A stretch of DNA of 64,000 bases, from the NCBI RefSeq assembly GCF_003334355.1, contig NZ_QOWP01000011.1, one strand, 5' to 3'. A model generated the notes under the pieces. It did no database searches. It saw only the letters and a program-made list of their open reading frames with translations, and was not told the DNA's origin. This DNA comes from Escherichia coli (GTDB taxonomy: Bacteria; Pseudomonadota; Gammaproteobacteria; Enterobacterales; Enterobacteriaceae). The position numbers were made by a program, and so were the translations under genes. Shown here piece by piece: positions 34,470-44,907 of this stretch (position 1 is the stretch's first letter; each line of letters begins with the position of its first letter).

Positions 34470-35276
34470 TTAACTGCGCGTCGCCGCTTTCATCGGTTGT
34501 ACAAAAACTTTCAGTGCCGCCAGCATTTTCTCTGGCTCATTAATATGTTGCTCGATGATTTTAACAATGGCCGAACCAGAAATCGCGCCCGCAGCTCCTG
34601 CATCAATCGCTGCTTTTACCTGATCCGGGGCGGAAATACCAAATCCCTGCAATGGAGGTGCAGCGTTGTACTCTTTCAGCTTCGCAACCAGATGATTGAG
34701 GGGTAACGCGGCGCGGTTTTCTGCGCCGGTCACGCCTGCTCGTGACAGCAAATAGGTGTAACCACGACCGTAAGAGGCTATCTGGCGCAGCAGGTCGTCA
34801 TCGGCATTTGGCGGGCAGATGAAGATAGGTGCGACATTATGACGCAACGCGGCCTGGCGGAAGGGCGCGGACTCTTCAACTGGCACATCGGCAACCAGCA
34901 CCGAATCGACGCCGACTTTTTCGCACTGGGCATAAAACTCATCAATGCCTTTGTTAAACACCAGATTGGCATACATCAACAGGCCAATGGGAATGGTCGG
35001 GTGTTTCTGGCGAATCAGTGCCAGCATTTCAAAACATTGTGCCGGAGTCACACCTGCCGCAAAGGCGCGCAGAGTGGCGTTTTGAATCGTCGGGCCATCC
35101 GCCAGTGGGTCGGAGAAGGGGATACCTAACTCCAGCGCGTCAGCACCGGCTTCAATTAGCGTATCGATAATTTTCAATGACTGCTCAATGCCCGGATCAC
35201 CGAGCGTGACGAAAGGAACGAATGCGCCTTCTTTGCGCTCCTTCAACTGGGCAAACAGAGATTCGTAGCGTTCCAT
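34470..35276 (-). CDS. trpA: tryptophan synthase alpha subunit
   Basis: 268-aa [16 protein letters not shown]...; start overlaps trpB stop. Confidence 0.95.
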
Positions 35277-36469
35277 CAGATTTCCCCTCGTGCTTTCAAA
35301 ATATCGTGAACGGTGAAGATGTCTTTATCGCCGCGACCGGAAAGGTTAACCACCAGTAGCTGCTCTTTATCCGGGTTTTCGCGCATCATTTTCAACGCAT
35401 GGGCCAGGGCGTGGGAGGATTCCAGCGCCGGGATGATCCCTTCGTGCAGGCACAGCGTTTTGAAGGCTTCAAGGGCTTCATCATCGGTAATAGACACGTA
35501 ATCAGCGCGTCCAGTGCTGTTAAGATACGCGTGTTGTGGGCCGACAGACGGGAAATCCAGTCCGGCGGAGATGGAGTAAGATTCTTCAATCTGCCCGTCT
35601 TCGGTTTGCATCATCGGCGCTTTCATACCGAAATAGATACCCACGCGACCATGTTTTAGCGGTGCGCCGTGCTCGCCAGTTTCGATACCGTGACCACCTG
35701 GCTCCACACCAATCAGGCCGACGTTGGTTTCATTGATGAAATCAGCAAACATGCCGATGGCATTCGAACCGCCGCCAACACAGGCGATAACGGCATCCGG
35801 CAGGCGACCTTCTCTTTCCAGAATCTGCGCTTTGGTTTCTTCGCCAATCATCCGCTGAAACTCACGCACAATGGTCGGATAAGGATGCGGGCCAGCTGCG
35901 GTGCCCAGCATATAGTGCGCGGTTTCGTAACTACCGGACCAGTCGCGCAGCGCCTCGTTACAGGCATCTTTCAGCGTCGCGGAACCGCTATGCACCGGGA
36001 TCACTTCCGCACCCATTAAGCGCATACGAAAAACGTTAGGCGACTGGCGTTCAACGTCTTTGGCACCCATATAAATACGGCATTTCAGGCCGAGCAGGGC
36101 GCTGGCAAGGGCCGACGCCACGCCATGCTGACCGGCACCGGTTTCGGCGATGATTTCGGTTTTACCCATCCGCTTCGCCAGCAACGCCTGCCCCAGCACC
36201 TGGTTAGTTTTATGCGCGCCGCCGTGCAGCAAATCTTCACGCTTGAGATACAGCGTGGTGTTCGTCCCGGCTGTAATGTTCTGGCATTTGGTCAGCGCGG
36301 TTGGACGCCCGGCATAGTTTTTCAGCAGGTCGTTGAACTGAGCCTGAAATTCAGGATCTTTTTGCGCACTGACAAAAACTTCTTCCAGCTGGCGCAGAGC
36401 AGGCATCAGGATTTGTGGCACGTACATGCCGCCAAACTCACCAAAATAGGGGTTAAGTAATGTTGTCAT
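35276..36469 (-). CDS. trpB: tryptophan synthase beta subunit
   Basis: 397-aa ORF; PLP lysine context HGGAHKTNQ. Confidence 0.95.
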
Positions 36470-36480
36470 TGTTCCTTTCC

Positions 36481-37842
36481 TTAATATGCGCGCAGCGTCT
36501 GGAAAACCGAGGCCAAAAGACGTGCGTCTTTGATGCCCGGTTGCGACTCTACAGCAGAATTAAAATCAAGTCCGGCGCAGCCGGTTTGTGCCGCTTCCAC
36601 GCAGTTATCTGCGCCTAAGCCCCCCGCCAGCAGAACGTTGCCAAGCGATTGACCATTTAATAGTGACCAGTCAAAACGTTGCCCGCTTCCACCCTGGCCG
36701 TTGTCTAAAACATATTTATCAACGTGCTGAAACTCGCGGGCGGGCAGGGTTTCACCGACGCTTAATGCTTTCCAGATGGCAACATGTGCTGGCAGAGCTT
36801 CACGCAGCGTATCGATATACAGCTGTTCTTCATTACCATGCAGTTGCACTGCCGCCAGCGATAACACCTTAGCTTTGTCCACCACATCGGCAATATCGTG
36901 ATTGCGGAACACGCCAACATACTGCAACGGTGCCGCAGCCATCACTTCCTGCGCCTGTTCAACGTTGACGCAACGCGGTGATGTCGCAACAAAAATCAAC
37001 CCACCGTAAATCGCGCCCGCGTCATAAGCTGCTTTAGCATCTTGCCCACGCGTCAGGCCACATACTTTATTCTCACCCAGCAACACCCGGCGCACGGCGG
37101 CGTGCAAATCGTCATGGGCCATCAACGCCGAACCAATCAGAAAACCGTTAGCGAAGTGGCTTAACTCGCGCACCTGAGCGTAAGTATTGATGCCGGATTC
37201 GCTGATTACCGTCACGTTGTGCCCCAGTTTCGGCGCAAGCTCGCGGGTACGGTTGAGATCAATCGACAAATCACGCAGATCGCGGTTGTTGATGCCAACG
37301 ACCTTTGCCCCCAATGCAATGGCACGCTCCAGTTCCTCTTCATTACTGACTTCGGTCAGCACACCCATCTCCAGACTGTGGGCGACGGCGGCAAGCTGGC
37401 GATATTGTTCGTCATCCAGTACTGAAAGCATTAATAAGCAGGCATCAGCCTGGTAATAGCGCGCCAGATAGATCTGGTAAGGATCGATAATGAAGTCTTT
37501 ACATAAAATCGGCTGCGGGGCGATTTGGCTGACGATGGGGAGGAAATCAAAGCTCCCCTGAAAATATTTCTCATCAGTCAGCACCGAAATTGCCGAAGCG
37601 TAATGTTTATAAATGGCGGCAATGCGTGCTGGATCGAAATCATCACGGATCACGCCTTTTGACGGCGACGCTTTCTTGCACTCCAGAATAAACGCCGTGC
37701 GCGCACCCTGTAGCGCATCATAAAAATGTCGCGTGCTCGGCTGAACCTCATTCTGAAAACTGGCCAGCGGTTGCTGCTGTTTGCGGGTTTCTACCCAAAT
37801 CGCCTTGTCTGCGACGATTTTCGCTAAAACGGTTTGCATCAT
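36481..37842 (-). CDS. trpC: indole-3-glycerol-phosphate synthase / phosphoribosylanthranilate isomerase
   Basis: 453-aa bifunctional ORF. Confidence 0.95.
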
Positions 37843-39438
37843 TTACCCTCGTGCCGCCAGTGCGGTAACTCTGTCGTAAGCGGAACCACTGCGCAGTACC
37901 TCAAGAACGGTTTGCGCATTGGCTTGCAGATCTTCATGGCCATGCAGGCGCATTAACATGGCGACGTTCGCAGCGACGGCTGCTTCATGGGCGGCGTCGC
38001 CTTTACCTTGTAACAAGCGTGTTAAAATGTCACGGTTTTCTTCCGGTGTTCCGCCTGCCAGTTGCTCCTGGTGGTAGGGAGTCAGGCCAAAATCTTCAGC
38101 GGTCAATTGATAGCTCTTAATTTCGCCGTCATGCAGCTCGGCAACGATTGTCGGCGCGTGTAATGAAACTTCATCCATCCCGCCGCTGTGCACCACCGCC
38201 GCGCGTTGATACCCCAGCACGCGCAAGGTTTCGGCAATCGGCAGCACCAGTTCCGGACTATAAACACCAATTAACGCCAGCGGCGGATGCGCCGGGTTAA
38301 TCAATGGCCCCAGCACATTGAACAGGGTGCGGGTTTTCAGTTGCTGGCGAACCGGCATCGCGTGGCGGAATCCGGTGTGATACTTCGGCGCAAAGAGGAA
38401 ACATACACCTAACTCATCCAGCGCCTGGCGCGATTTATCGGCGTTCATATCAAGATTAATACCGAACGCCGCCAGCAGATCGGACGAACCTGATTTACTG
38501 GAGACGCTACGGTTGCCGTGTTTCGCCACTTTCAGCCCACAGGCCGCGGCGACAAACGCACTGGCGGTAGAAATATTGATACTGTTGCTGCCGTCACCGC
38601 CAGTACCGACGATATCAGCAAACAGATAATCCGGGCGCGGGAACGGCGCGGCGTTTTCCAGTAGCGCGGTTGCTGCTCCGGCGATCTCGTTCGGGTGCTC
38701 ACCGCGAATTTTCATGCTCACCAGCGCCGCCGCCAGTTGTTCCGGCTTCAGCTCGCCACGCACCACCGCTGAAAACAGCTGGTGGCTTTCTTGTTGGCTA
38801 AGCGTCTGCGCCTGATACAGTTTTTCCAGAATCGGTTGCAGCGTGTTGGCTGGCTCTAGTTTCTGCTGCGCCCAGGCCAGCGTTTGTTCCAGCAGGCGAG
38901 CGCCCTGGGTGGTGAGAATGGATTCCGGATGGAACTGGAATCCACAAACGCGATCCGCATCGTGACGTACTGCCATCACCATGCCATTAAAATGGGCGTT
39001 GATGGTTAAACCGGCCGGAATGTTACTGCCAACCAGCGAGTGATAACGCGCCACCGGCAGCGGGTTTGTTAATCCGGCAAACATCGCCTGACCGTCATGT
39101 TCAATGCTCGACGCTTTACCGTGAAGAATTTCGCCCGCCTGACCGACATAGCCCCCGTAAGCTTCGACAATTGCCTGATGTCCGAGGCAAATGCCAATAA
39201 TGGGCAGCTTGCCACGCAAGCGGGTGAGGAGTTCCGGCATACAACCGGCTTCGCTCGGCACACCGGGGCCAGGAGAAAGCATCAGTACCGGATTGCTCAT
39301 CGTCGCCAGGCGTTCAATTAAGGTCTGCGCCGGAATATGGTTGCGGTAAATCACCACGTTATGACCATTGCTGCGCAACTGATCTGCCAGGTTGTACGTA
39401 AAAGAGTCGATATTATCGAGCAGCAGAATGTCAGCCAT
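37843..39438 (-). CDS. trpD: anthranilate synthase component II / anthranilate phosphoribosyltransferase
   Basis: 531-aa ORF; glutamine amidotransferase N-domain plus PRT domain; start overlaps trpE stop. Confidence 0.95.
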
Positions 39439-41000
39439 CAGAAAGTCTCCTGTGCATGATGCGCGGTGGCAATAGCGCGCAGTACAGCGCGGGCTTTGTT
39501 ACGGGTTTCGTCGGCTTCCGACTGCGGAACAGAATCAAGGACTACACCAGCACCCGCTTGCACGGTGGCGATACCGTTTTCCACCAGCGCCGAGCGGATC
39601 ACAATGCAGGTGTCGAGATCGCCATGCGCGGTGAAATAACCTACCGCGCCGCCGTAGCTGCCGCGGCGACGACCTTCCGCCTCGGCAATTAACTGCATAG
39701 CGCGTACTTTCGGCGCACCGCTTAACGTCCCCATATTCATACAGGCGCGATAAGCGTGCAGGGCGTCAAGATCGTGACGCAGTTCGCCGACTACGCGAGA
39801 GACGAGGTGCATCACATAGGAATAACGGTCAACTTTGGTGAGATCGGCGACGTAGCGGCTGCCGGGGGTGCAAATGCGTGCCAGATCATTACGGGCGAGA
39901 TCAACCAGCATCAGATGTTCAGACAGCTCTTTATGATCGGTACGCATTTCCAGTTCAATACGGCTGTCGAGATCTCTGTCCAGTGAACCATCGGCGCGAC
40001 GACCGCGTGGGCGTGTTCCGGCAATCGGGTAGATCTCAATCTGGCGGCTGGTGGCATCATACTTGAGCGAGCTTTCCGGCGACGCGCCAAATAGGGTGAA
40101 ATCATTATCCTGCATAAAAAACATGTACGGGCTGGGATTACTCTTTTTCAGCACGTAATAGGCCGCCAGCGGTGACGGGCAGGGCAGAGAGAAACGGCGA
40201 GATGGCACCACCTGGAAAATTTCTCCAGCGCGAATCGCTTTTTGCAACAAACGCACTACGCCACCGAACTCTTCATCGCTCTGATTACATTCACAACGCA
40301 TATGCGGCACGGAAACCACTGGCAGCGGCGGCGCGGCTTCGGTCAGTTGCTGACGTAGTTCGTTCAGGCGAGCAGTGAGACGTTGTTTTTCTTCTTCATT
40401 CGGAGCAAACAGGCTGGCCTGAATACGGGTGCTTTTTTTCTGATGGTCAATCACCATCAGCGTTTCAGCGAGATAAAAACAGAAATCAGGGCAGTTATTT
40501 TCCGCTGACAGTTGCGGTAAATCTTCAAATCCCGCCACAAGGTCATAAGAGAACAGGCCGCCGAAGAACATGGCTTCTCGTTCTTCCTTCGGTACATTCA
40601 ACAGATTCTGCAATAAACGGAAAGCGTCAAAAACCGAAAGGGAGCATAAGCGGGCGTCTTCATCCAGCAGTGGACTGACAGGGGGGAAGCGCAGCACACG
40701 GCAGTTTGGTGATTGTTCACTTTCTACACCCGCAGGCAGGGCGTTATCCAGTAGTGCCAGCAGGGCTTCGCCGTTGCCGGAAAGTGCCTGGATTGTGACA
40801 GTGTCACCTAAAGCTGTAATGCGCAGCGCACTGTCTACCAGCAGCAGGCTTTTTAAATCATCTTTGCTGTCGATATCTGCGGATTCCAGCAGCAGCGTTG
40901 CCGGACGATCCCCACACAACTGGTGAAAAAGCGCGGTGGGATTGTCGCGATAAGCGCCTTCGCAGGTTAGCAGTTCGAGAGTCGGTTTTTGTGTTTGCAT
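39438..41000 (-). CDS. trpE: anthranilate synthase component I
   Basis: 520-aa [31 protein letters not shown]... Confidence 0.95.
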
Positions 41001-41021
41001 TGTTATTCTCTAATTTTGTTC

Positions 41022-41048
41022 AAAAAAAAGCCCGCTCATTAGGCGGGC
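41022..41048 (-). terminator. trp attenuator (3:4 terminator hairpin)
   Basis: Minus-strand AGCCCGCCTAATGAGCGGGCT followed by T8. Confidence 0.85.
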
Positions 41049-41091
41049 TGGGTATCTGATTGCTTTACGCATGGTGAATACACTGCCCGTT

Positions 41092-41136
41092 TCAGGAAGT
41101 GCGCCACCAACCTTTCAGTACGAAAATTGCTTTCAT
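41092..41136 (-). CDS. trpL: trp leader peptide
   Basis: ATG at 41136; 14 codons [14 protein letters not shown] with tandem Trp codons at 41104-41109. Confidence 0.85.
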
Positions 41137-41159
41137 TGTCGATACCCTTTTTACGTGAA

Positions 41160-41198
41160 CTTTCGTACTAGTTAACTAGTTCGATGATTAATTGTCAA
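41160..41198 (-). promoter_or_regulatory. trp promoter with TrpR operator
   Basis: Minus-strand -35 TTGACA at 41198-41193; palindromic operator ACTAGTTAACTAGT at 41167-41180 overlapping -10 TTAACTA. Confidence 0.8.
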
Positions 41199-41273
41199 CA
41201 GCTCATTTCAGAATATTTGCCAGAACCGTTATGATGTCGGCGCAAAAAACATTATCCAGAACGGGAGTGCGCC

Positions 41274-42155
41274 TTGAGCGACACGAATTACGCAGTGATT
41301 TACGACCTGCACAGCCATACCACAGCTTCCGATGGCTGCCTGACGCCAGAAGCATTGGTGCACCGTGCAGTCGAGATGCGCGTCGGCACCCTGGCGATCA
41401 CCGACCATGACACCACAGCTGCAATCGCACCAGCAAGAGAGGAAATTTCACGTTCGGGACTGGCGCTGAATCTTATTCCCGGCGTGGAAATTTCCACGGT
41501 CTGGGAAAATCATGAAATTCATATTGTCGGGCTGAATATTGATATTACTCATCCGCTAATGTGTGAGTTCCTCGCGCAGCAGACAGAACGGCGCAATCAG
41601 CGGGCGCAGCTCATTGCCGAAAGACTTGAAAAAACGCAAATACCTGGGGCGCTGGAAGGCGCGCAACGACTGGCTCAGGGCGGCGCAGTGACGCGCGGTC
41701 ATTTTGCGCGTTTCCTTGTGGAGTGCGGCAAAGCCAGTTCAATGGCGGATGTCTTTAAAAAGTATCTGGCGCGCGGGAAAACCGGATACGTTCCGCCACA
41801 GTGGTGTACAATAGAACAAGCTATTGATGTCATTCATCATTCTGGCGGTAAGGCGGTGCTAGCTCATCCTGGGCGGTACAATCTTAGTGCTAAATGGCTG
41901 AAAAGATTGGTTGCGCATTTTGCCGAACACCACGGCGACGCGATGGAAGTCGCGCAGTGCCAGCAATCGCCCAATGAACGCACCCAGTTGGCGACCCTTG
42001 CGCGTCAGCATCATTTATGGGCATCACAAGGATCTGATTTTCATCAGCCATGCCCGTGGATCGAACTGGGTCGTAAACTCTGGCTGCCCGCAGGCGTTGA
42101 AGGCGTCTGGCAGCTATGGGAACAGCCGCAGAACACCACAGAGAGGGAATTATGA
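41274..42155 (+). CDS. yciV: PHP-domain 5'-3' exoribonuclease (RNase AM)
   Basis: 293-aa ORF with PHP motif DLHSHTTASDG. Confidence 0.9.
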   Translation: MSDTNYAVIYDLHSHTTASDGCLTPEALVHRAVEMRVGTLAITDHDTTAAIAPAREEISRSGLALNLIPGVEISTVWENHEIHIVGLNIDITHPLMCEFLAQQTERRNQRAQLIAERLEKTQIPGALEGAQRLAQGGAVTRGHFARFLVECGKASSMADVFKKYLARGKTGYVPPQWCTIEQAIDVIHHSGGKAVLAHPGRYNLSAKWLKRLVAHFAEHHGDAMEVAQCQQSPNERTQLATLARQHHLWASQGSDFHQPCPWIELGRKLWLPAGVEGVWQLWEQPQNTTEREL

Positions 42156-42799: not shown

Positions 42800-44695
42800 A
42801 TGGCAGGGAAGTTTCGCTGCATTTTGCTGTTGATAGCAGGGCTGTTTGTATCATCTCTAAGTTATGCAGAAAACACGGAGATCCCTTCTTATGAAGAAGG
42901 GATCTCGCTCTTTGATGTTGAAGCCACTCTGCAACCAGATGGGGTGCTCGACATCAAAGAAAATATTCATTTTCAGGCGCGAAATCAGCAGATTAAGCAC
43001 GGCTTTTATCGTGATTTACCACGACTCTGGATGCAGCCTGATGGGGACGCTGCACTGCTGAACTATCATATTGTTGGCGTCACCCGTGATGGTATTCCTG
43101 AACCCTGGCATCTTGACTGGCATATCGGGTTAATGAGTATTGTCGTGGGCGATAAACAACGTTTCTTGCCTCAAGGCGACTATCATTATCAAATTCATTA
43201 TCAGGTTAAAAATGCTTTCCTGCGTGAGGGGGATTCTGATCTGCTAATCTGGAACGTGACCGGTAACCACTGGCCGTTTGAAATTTATAAGACCCGTTTT
43301 TCTCTCCAGTTCTCTAATATTGCGGGTAATCCATTTAGCGAAATCGATCTCTTTACCGGAGAAGAGGGCGACACATATCGTAATGGCCGCATCCTTGAGG
43401 ACGGAAGAATTGAATCCCGCGATCCGTTTTATCGTGAAGATTTCACGGTCCTCTACCGCTGGCCTCACGCTTTACTTAGCAATGCCTCGGCTCCGCAAAC
43501 GACGAATATTTTCAGCCATCTTCTTTTACCCTCCACGTCATCGTTGTTAATTTGGTTTCCGTGTCTGTTCCTGGTTTGTGGATGGTTATATCTCTGGAAG
43601 CGCAGGCCGCAATTTACGCCGGTAGATGTGATTGAAACCGATGTCATTCCGCCAGATTACACGCCCGGCATGTTACGTCTCGATGCGAAGCTAGTTTACG
43701 ACGATAAAGGTTTTTGTGCCGATATCGTAAATCTGATTGTGAAAGGAAAAATTCATCTGGAAGATCAGTCTGACAAGAACCAGCAAATCCTGATTCGTGT
43801 TAATGAAGGCGCGACCAGAAATAATGCGGTATTACTGCCCGCAGAGCAGTTATTACTGGAAGCGTTATTTCGTAAAGGCGATAAGGTCGTTCTTACGGGG
43901 AGACGCAACAGAGTCTTACGCAGGGCATTTTTACGGATGCAGAAATTTTATCTGCCGCGTAAAAAGTCTTCGTTTTACCGGTCTGATACTTTTTTGCAAT
44001 GGGGTGGACTGGCAATATTGGCGGTCATTCTTTACGGTAACTTGAGTCCTGTAGGCTGGGCAGGAATGAGTCTGGTGGGCGATATGTTTATTATGATCTG
44101 CTGGATTATTCCTTTTTTATTTTGTTCCCTTGAGCTTTTGTTTGCCCGCGATGATGACAAGCCTTGCGTTAATCGTGTAATCATCACTTTGTTTTTACCA
44201 CTGATTTGTTCAGGCGTGGCCTTCTATTCTCTCTACATCAATGTCGGAGATGTATTCTTTTACTGGTATATGCCAGCGGGTTATTTTACCGCTGTTTTCC
44301 TGACCGGTTATCTCACTGGCATGGGGTATATTTTTCTGCCAAAGTTTACCCAAACTGGACAGCAACGTTATGCCCACGGTGAAGCTATCGTTAACTATCT
44401 TGCGCGTAAAGAGGCGGCAACACACAGTGGGCGGCGTCGGAAAGGGGAAACACGGAAACTGGATTATGCGTTGCTAGGTTGGGCGGTCTCGGCAAACCTT
44501 GGCAGAGAATGGGCAGCACGTATCACCCCATCACTCACAGCGGCTGTTCGCGCCCCGGAAATTGCCCGTAGCGGCGTTTTATTCTCATTACAGACGCACC
44601 TAAGTTGCGGGGCCTATACCAGTTTGTTGGGGCGAAGTTATTCCGGTGGTGGTGCTGGCGGCGGCGCGGGTGGCGGAGGCGGTGGTGGCTGGTAA
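42800..44695 (+). CDS. yciQ: DUF2207-family membrane protein
   Basis: 631-aa ORF with signal peptide, central TM segments and C-terminal Gly-rich tail. Confidence 0.85.
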   Translation: MAGKFRCILLLIAGLFVSSLSYAENTEIPSYEEGISLFDVEATLQPDGVLDIKENIHFQARNQQIKHGFYRDLPRLWMQPDGDAALLNYHIVGVTRDGIPEPWHLDWHIGLMSIVVGDKQRFLPQGDYHYQIHYQVKNAFLREGDSDLLIWNVTGNHWPFEIYKTRFSLQFSNIAGNPFSEIDLFTGEEGDTYRNGRILEDGRIESRDPFYREDFTVLYRWPHALLSNASAPQTTNIFSHLLLPSTSSLLIWFPCLFLVCGWLYLWKRRPQFTPVDVIETDVIPPDYTPGMLRLDAKLVYDDKGFCADIVNLIVKGKIHLEDQSDKNQQILIRVNEGATRNNAVLLPAEQLLLEALFRKGDKVVLTGRRNRVLRRAFLRMQKFYLPRKKSSFYRSDTFLQWGGLAILAVILYGNLSPVGWAGMSLVGDMFIMICWIIPFLFCSLELLFARDDDKPCVNRVIITLFLPLICSGVAFYSLYINVGDVFFYWYMPAGYFTAVFLTGYLTGMGYIFLPKFTQTGQQRYAHGEAIVNYLARKEAATHSGRRRKGETRKLDYALLGWAVSANLGREWAARITPSLTAAVRAPEIARSGVLFSLQTHLSCGAYTSLLGRSYSGGGAGGGAGGGGGGGW

Positions 44696-44907
44696 TTAAG
44701 CTGATGTTAATCGAAACAAGCTTTAACCATAAAGATAGTGTAGTATGTTGCGCCTCAAAGCCAGGCCAGTTAAAACGTCGAGTCGTTTACTTAAGGCCTG
44801 AGGAGTTCAAACAGACTTTACTATCAGTGAGTCAGATGTAAGTTCTGACTCACTGTTGCACAAAAGCATATCAGACGCCTGGGAAGGCGACACCAAAAGG
44901 AAGCTCT

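Follow-up and report, generated by a model that had tools for sequence, protein, structure and literature searches.

The closest described counterpart of the locus analysed here is the trp regulatory region of Escherichia coli K-12, and several TrpR dimers reportedly bind the trp operator. A second point of comparison is the set of promoters with reiterative initiation, such as pyrBI, codBA and upp. The TrpR operator has been modeled as inverted GNACT half-sites spaced by 8 bp, GNACT-N8-AGTNC (PMC9413887). For E. coli RNA polymerase, the modal distance from the -10 element to the start is 7 bp; purines are strongly preferred at the start itself and pyrimidines at the base that precedes it (PMC5730371). 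A YRR or YRY triplet whose central base is the 7th or 8th coincides with the start in 67-93% of cases and increases promoter strength (PMC12641261). For efficient reiterative initiation, the start must carry a homopolymer of 3 nt or more, and template TTT is among those that serve (PMC8812562). In the literature searched, no relevant description of natural polymorphism in the trp promoter and no study of the function of an A allele at its position -1 was found.

Here, a trp regulatory region with A in place of C at -1 is described from a 64,000-nucleotide stretch of E. coli DNA (the window). We regard it as very probable that the locus is a canonical sigma-70 trp promoter, TrpR operator and leader carrying a natural and recurrent C-to-A change at -1, a minor polymorphism whose effect on regulation, as inferred from the sequence, is probably small.

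The trp regulatory region of the window

The window is filled by ordinary E. coli chromosomal DNA running from narG to pdeR. It comes from an E. coli of commensal type that is not K-12, and a non-K-12 strain was one of the two readings offered in the initial annotation: when PSS-12 was aligned to window positions 30000-54000, a single gap-free piece of 100.0% identity (rounded) was obtained, MLI023K1/K2 and others are likewise 100.0% identical over 24 kb, and the distance from K-12 is about 1% over 5.6 kb. The features of the trp locus are collected in Table 1.

Table 1. Features of the trp locus, in window coordinates
Feature	Position	Strand	Description and basis
-35 hexamer	41193..41198	minus	TTGACA; read from the sequence, same as K-12
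TrpR operator	41164..41183 (-21..-2)	minus	imperfect palindrome CGAACTAGTTAACTAGTACG, 20 bp, overlapping the -10 hexamer
-10 hexamer	41170..41175	minus	TTAACT, 17 bp after the -35 hexamer; read from the sequence, same as K-12
SNP	41163..41163	minus	A (plus-strand T) at trp promoter -1, C in K-12; read and alignment
Textbook transcription start +1	41162	minus	A; placed by distances to the trpL and trpE ATGs
trpL	41092..41136	minus	leader peptide gene; translation ends …KGWWRTS*, tandem Trp codons; trpL annotated in matching genomes
Trp_leader / attenuator RNA	41022..41115	minus	Rfam RF00513, full-length model, 93.1 bits against a gathering score of 41, E = 1.1e-18
Attenuator intrinsic terminator	41021..41049	minus	stem-loop AGCCCGCCTAATGAGCGGGCT (41049-41029), then a run of 8 T
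trpE, trpD, trpCF, trpB, trpA	34470..41000	minus	coordinates transferred from the PSS-12 annotation
rnm (yciV/trpH; RNase AM/RNM)	41274..42155	plus	divergent neighbour; TTG start at 41274

A sigma-70 promoter of the form TTGACA, 17 bp, TTAACT sits upstream of trpL, and the operator, GAACT-AGTTAACT-AGTAC, fits the inverted GNACT half-site model and overlaps the -10 hexamer. A leader peptide with tandem Trp codons is followed by an intrinsic terminator, as in the RF00513 family, and the attenuator lies directly upstream of trpEDCBA. As far as such features can be judged from sequence, every defining feature of an enterobacterial trp promoter-operator and attenuator is present. The trp promoter went unreported by a consensus promoter scan, the rule of which demands A at hexamer position 2, where TTAACT fails; this is a limitation of the tool and does not count against the promoter. 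The start was placed by distance. Position 41162 is 26 nt upstream of the trpL ATG (41136) and 162 nt upstream of the trpE ATG (41000), and because the latter distance matches the classical 162-nt leader, 41162 is taken as the textbook +1 and the variable base as -1. The variable base is the 7th past the -10 hexamer and the textbook +1 A is the 8th.

Read from 41198 to 41154, the minus strand is TTGACAATTAATCATCGAACTAGTTAACTAGTACGAAAGTTCACG, exactly as the initial annotation had given it. The K-12 sequence set down in the annotation (…TAGTACGCAAGTTCACG) also proved right when window positions 41350-40950 (minus strand, 401 bp) were aligned with K-12 MG1655 (NZ_CP169634.1), O157 180-PT54, UPEC F11 and the pig strain NT1N25. 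The reference carries C where the window has A, so the difference is real. The base at -1 is C in K-12, O157 180-PT54 and F11 and A in the window and NT1N25. Only two columns of this alignment distinguish the window from K-12, 41163 (A/C) and 41291 (G/A), the second of which falls in the coding region of the divergent rnm. From +1 to 51 nt inside trpE every base is the same as in K-12, in line with the annotated match of the leader, trpL and attenuator. The variable site, described in the annotation as just outside the TrpR palindrome and adjoining +1, is indeed one base past the 20-bp palindrome.

Other elements were noted in the window. A promoter-like site (TTCAGA-17-TATGAT, 41207-41235, plus strand) lies back-to-back with the trp promoter and faces rnm, and may be the rnm promoter. 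A full-length match to the enterobacterial sRNA STnc180 (Rfam RF02079, 198 bits) is found at 53555-53757 on the plus strand. The tyrT-tyrV locus (5961-6875, minus strand) contains four RtT repeat units, of which one separates the two tRNA-Tyr genes and the other three follow the second gene. Only two RtT features are annotated in PSS-12, a very close match over the compared 30000-54000; the difference looks like copy-number variation of a repeat of about 179 bp.

Alleles and haplotype backgrounds in E. coli

Allele frequencies were estimated with 35-mers centred on the SNP, for which all 28-base megablast seeds span -1, so that only genomes with the queried base are retrieved. Among 5,426 complete E. 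coli genomes, about 5,422 of which contain the region, the base at -1 is C in 5,153, A in 166, T in 5 and G in 1. The A allele is an ordinary natural minor allele found in about 3% (3.1%) of E. coli genomes, and the initial suggestion of a promoter variant is correct in this sense. Within the core from -11 to +10, some 97 genomes carry another change, compared with 172 genomes with a base other than C at -1. By genome number, -1 is the most often variant position of this core. The A carriers include E. coli W, KCTC 2571, the O111:H8/O111:H- clade, four O157:H7 strains and porcine ETEC (UMNF18 and others), and their sources are humans, cattle, pigs, pigeons, dogs, water and the laboratory strain W; the allele is therefore already present in public genomes, a common laboratory strain among them. 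A sequencing or assembly error at 41163, for which one can say merely that a single base is involved, is vanishingly improbable, given that the same A occurs in 166 independently sequenced complete genomes, uniformly inside clades, and that several genomes equal the window at 100.0% identity over 24 kb.

Further variants segregate around the trp promoter. At -28 (window 41190), a T-to-C change in 272 genomes of O157-type strains turns the promoter spacer AATTAATC into AATCAATC. At -16 (window 41178), a position at which the window agrees with K-12, a T-to-C change that converts the left CTAG of the operator to CCAG occurs in F11, W, Res13-Lact-EA06-22 and STEC1590. The -16 C appears to be common and, lying inside the operator core, would probably be more consequential for repression than the SNP at -1. 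The W-type strains also carry a G-to-C change at +52, which replaces Gly9 of the leader peptide by Ala beside the two Trp codons (4042-4086 of the 8-kb W locus).

To place the A allele on its haplotypes, the 8-kb loci of 10 further A carriers and 7 C carriers were collected, and 5.6 kb were aligned together with the window. The 11 A carriers, window included, represent 7-8 distinct local haplotypes (at least 7 in the 5.6-kb alignment); they differ from one another at up to 172 positions, and the main haplotype groups are separated by at least 46. Three of the A backgrounds have near-identical C-carrying counterparts over the 5.6 kb. O157:H7 PV15-279 differs from O157 180-PT54 at one position, the SNP itself, UMNF18 differs from K-12 MG1655 at two positions, and the window differs from E41 and GmM062 at four. 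Furthermore, of the genomes with the O157-type promoter haplotype, recognised by C at -28, 268 carry C at -1 and 4 carry A, and A is therefore derived there. Because three A backgrounds are near-identical to genomes with C, recurrent C-to-A mutation is the simplest reading of the presence of A on several unrelated haplotypes.

The sampled loci also differ in yciQ (DUF2207), which lies between rluB and yciO (window ~42800-44700) and varies in structure: the gene has its full 1,896 nt in K-12, UMNF18 and the group of the window, is shortened to 1,584 nt in O157, and is missing from O111:H8, W, TW10590 and PT62.

The contrasting possibility that A arose once and was moved among lineages by short tracts of homologous recombination, with no recurrence, was considered and is judged to be rather unlikely. 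Recombination is frequent in E. coli, and a short tract need leave no other trace in a region (-27 to +51) that is invariant in most strains; UMNF18 and O111:H8 have an identical tract of 1.7 kb in common and could share one origin. However, the tracts would have to be very short, as O157-type carriers are identical to the other A carriers over just 26 + 242 bp and W-type carriers to the window over just 14 + 51 bp. The A-carrying PV15-279 genome is moreover the same as a C-carrying O157 genome over 5.6 kb save for the SNP, and the same alternation of C and A is seen in genera with no exchange of this DNA with E. coli (see below). Conversion tracts of less than about 270 bp may still have carried A between some backgrounds; they would pass unseen because the sequence from -27 to +51 is otherwise almost invariant.

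A recombination import into the lineage of the window itself was rejected, since its other differences from its closest relatives are private and none is common to the A carriers. The window has private bases at 40725 (+438, G-to-A, trpE) and 38491 (+2672, T-to-A, trpD) relative to the 17 other sampled strains; both are singletons, absent from all other sampled A carriers, and no sign of an imported tract was seen in this lineage. The TrpE and TrpD proteins of PSS-12, the genome with 100.0% (rounded) identity to the window over 24 kb, are the K-12 versions.

Base preference at -1 and its possible causes

One genome per GTDB species was scanned with AACTAGTTAACTAGTACGNAAGT, which yielded 91 loci in Enterobacterales. 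The scan pattern fixes the flanks and is hence uninformative on their conservation, while the distribution at the free -1 position is unbiased. The GTDB representative of E. coli itself was unmatched by the pattern, possibly because of -16C. Among the 90 loci scorable at both -1 and -22, the base at -1 is C in 70, A in 18, T in 2 and G in none. Both C and A are found inside Citrobacter, Buttiauxella, Leclercia, Enterobacter, Kluyvera and Symbiopectobacterium. The A of other species is an independent occurrence of the base and not an allele shared by descent.

The ranking of bases at -1 is accordingly the same in E. coli (5,153/166/5/1) and across species (70/18/2/0), namely C far above A, A far above T, and T above G. 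This ranking is not the one expected from the rule of a pyrimidine at -1, under which T should be the best-tolerated substitute. In the general mutation spectrum of E. coli, as known from mutation-accumulation studies, C-to-T is commoner than C-to-A. Because the ranking fits neither the pyrimidine-purine rule nor this spectrum, two explanations remain for why A so strongly outnumbers T: a mutation bias specific to this site, or a selection that tolerates or favours A and not T.

A mutational hotspot specific to -1 and devoid of functional meaning is a possible, if doubtful, form of the first explanation. Three mechanisms are candidates: transient misalignment in which the A on the 3' side is copied (G-C-A-A to G-A-A-A), oxidation of the G on the template strand while it is exposed in the open complex of a promoter with strong transcription, and template switching in the operator quasi-palindrome, with T-22 templating A-1. 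The substituted base is always A, which is also the base at the following two positions. In addition, A at -1 adds one pair (T-22/A-1) to the operator inverted repeat, which takes the predicted DNA hairpin from -3.2 to -4.5 kcal/mol; quasi-palindromes are known hotspots in E. coli (PMC7202029), and in Pseudomonas a hotspot that depends on transcription has been described within a promoter (PMC11838912). On the other hand, a pure hotspot would not leave C as the long-term majority. Templating by the quasi-palindrome is further disfavoured across species, as T at -22 accompanies A-1 at 7 of 18 loci and C-1 at 53 of 70 (P = 0.0045, Fisher's exact test, not phylogenetically corrected), an association opposite to the one expected. 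It was thus rejected as a general cause and is retained as a minor possibility that fits E. coli. A coincidence statistic computed for three haplotype clusters with a common variable column (1.7e-6 expected) was discarded as well; it is invalid as a test for a hotspot, the clusters having been chosen for carrying both alleles.

The second explanation, in its strong form, holds that C-to-A at -1 has been repeatedly selected as an adaptive variant that tunes the output of the trp operon. The tuning could come, for instance, from a start at the modal position, from reiterative initiation sensitive to ATP, or from a small change in repression. The recurrence on unrelated haplotypes would agree with this, as would the fixation of A in whole clades such as O111:H8 and the predominance of A over T (166:5 genomes, 18:2 species), even though T would keep the pyrimidine-purine start element; the T and G alleles are confined to single genomes or to a pair from one strain series. 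Against it, A is found in just 3% of E. coli genomes and about 20% of species, with C the majority everywhere, carriers from humans, cattle, pigs, pigeons, water and the laboratory strain W show no correlation with phenotype or niche, and genome counts track the sampling of clades and not the number of events. Adaptive tuning is hence considered improbable. Equally improbable, in our estimate, is its extension to a C/A switch at -1 that is recurrently flipped in E. coli lineages and across Enterobacterales and kept by selection. If such a switch were real, promoters with A would start at the modal position, undergo ATP-sensitive reiterative initiation, or both, lineages would differ slightly in their set-point of tryptophan biosynthesis, and a single base of a textbook promoter would be a case of parallel cis-regulatory evolution.

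Predicted effects and comparison with known trp promoters

Any effect of A at -1 on initiation would follow from its position relative to the -10 hexamer. The K-12 promoter has C-A-A at bases 7-9 past TTAACT, which makes a YRR element with base 8, the textbook +1, at its centre, whereas the window reads G-A-A-A-G over bases 6-10. A pyrimidine-purine start element 7-8 bp after the -10 hexamer is thus present in K-12 as C-A and lacking in the window, where A-A is preceded by G. The loss of the pyrimidine at -1, together with the purine now at the modal base 7, would be expected to split initiation between bases 7 and 8, and a part of the transcripts would gain one extra A at the 5' end. Promoter output would change at most modestly, in a direction that the sequence leaves uncertain. 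The A allele also creates a run of AAA (non-template; TTT in the template) from -1 to +2, which counts from +1 only if the start moves to -1; any low-level reiterative addition of A would depend on that same shift.

Since -1 falls outside the primary GAACT-N8-AGTAC site, TrpR repression is expected to stay essentially as it is in K-12, and with a leader identical to that of K-12, attenuation should likewise be unaffected. Two routes to a direct effect on TrpR were examined and set aside. A putative second site shifted by 8 bp (TAACT-N8-AGTTC, -12 to +6) would place -1 in the uncontacted spacer of the GNACT-N8 model, and the proposal that the C of CAAG forms part of a CTAG-like recognition element was withdrawn once the half-sites had been placed.

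The A at -1 is genuine, yet it is an unremarkable natural variant of a textbook promoter; its recurrence and base bias are a small curiosity and do not define a new kind of system. It has little bearing on the understanding of the trp system, all regulatory elements being canonical. The textbook trp promoter is nonetheless one allele of a polymorphic site, and constructs or models derived from W, O111 and similar strains will differ from it at -1. On account of its homoplasy and base preference, the site also offers an inexpensive natural system for testing how the base at -1 affects the choice of start, or for studying mutation bias associated with promoters.

Compared with known systems, the locus is closest to the trp region of K-12, with which it shares the -35 hexamer, 17-bp spacer, -10 hexamer, operator, 162-nt leader, trpL peptide, attenuator and terminator. 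The match is base-for-base between -129 (128 bases upstream of -1) and 51 bases into trpE, with the exception of -1, where the start element GCAAG of K-12 is GAAAG in the window. E. coli W (NC_017635.1) and its relatives have A at -1 as the window does; unlike the window, the W-type strains (W, Res13-Lact-EA06-22 and STEC1590) also carry -16C and +52C, so that their trp regulatory region departs from K-12 at three positions (-16C, -1A, +52C). The relatives with A at -1 in other species, including Salmonella enterica subsp. arizonae, Citrobacter amalonaticus, C. sedlakii, Leclercia adecarboxylata, Enterobacter soli and Kluyvera georgiana, share with the window the identical core AACTAGTTAACTAGTACG-A-AAGT and differ from it in the -35/spacer and leader sequences. 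With the promoters of reiterative initiation, the A allele may have in common the minimum homopolymer of 3 nt (PMC8812562), here AAA, a run that would count from +1 only if initiation moved to the new A; the likeness points to a possible action of the trp A allele and not to its membership.
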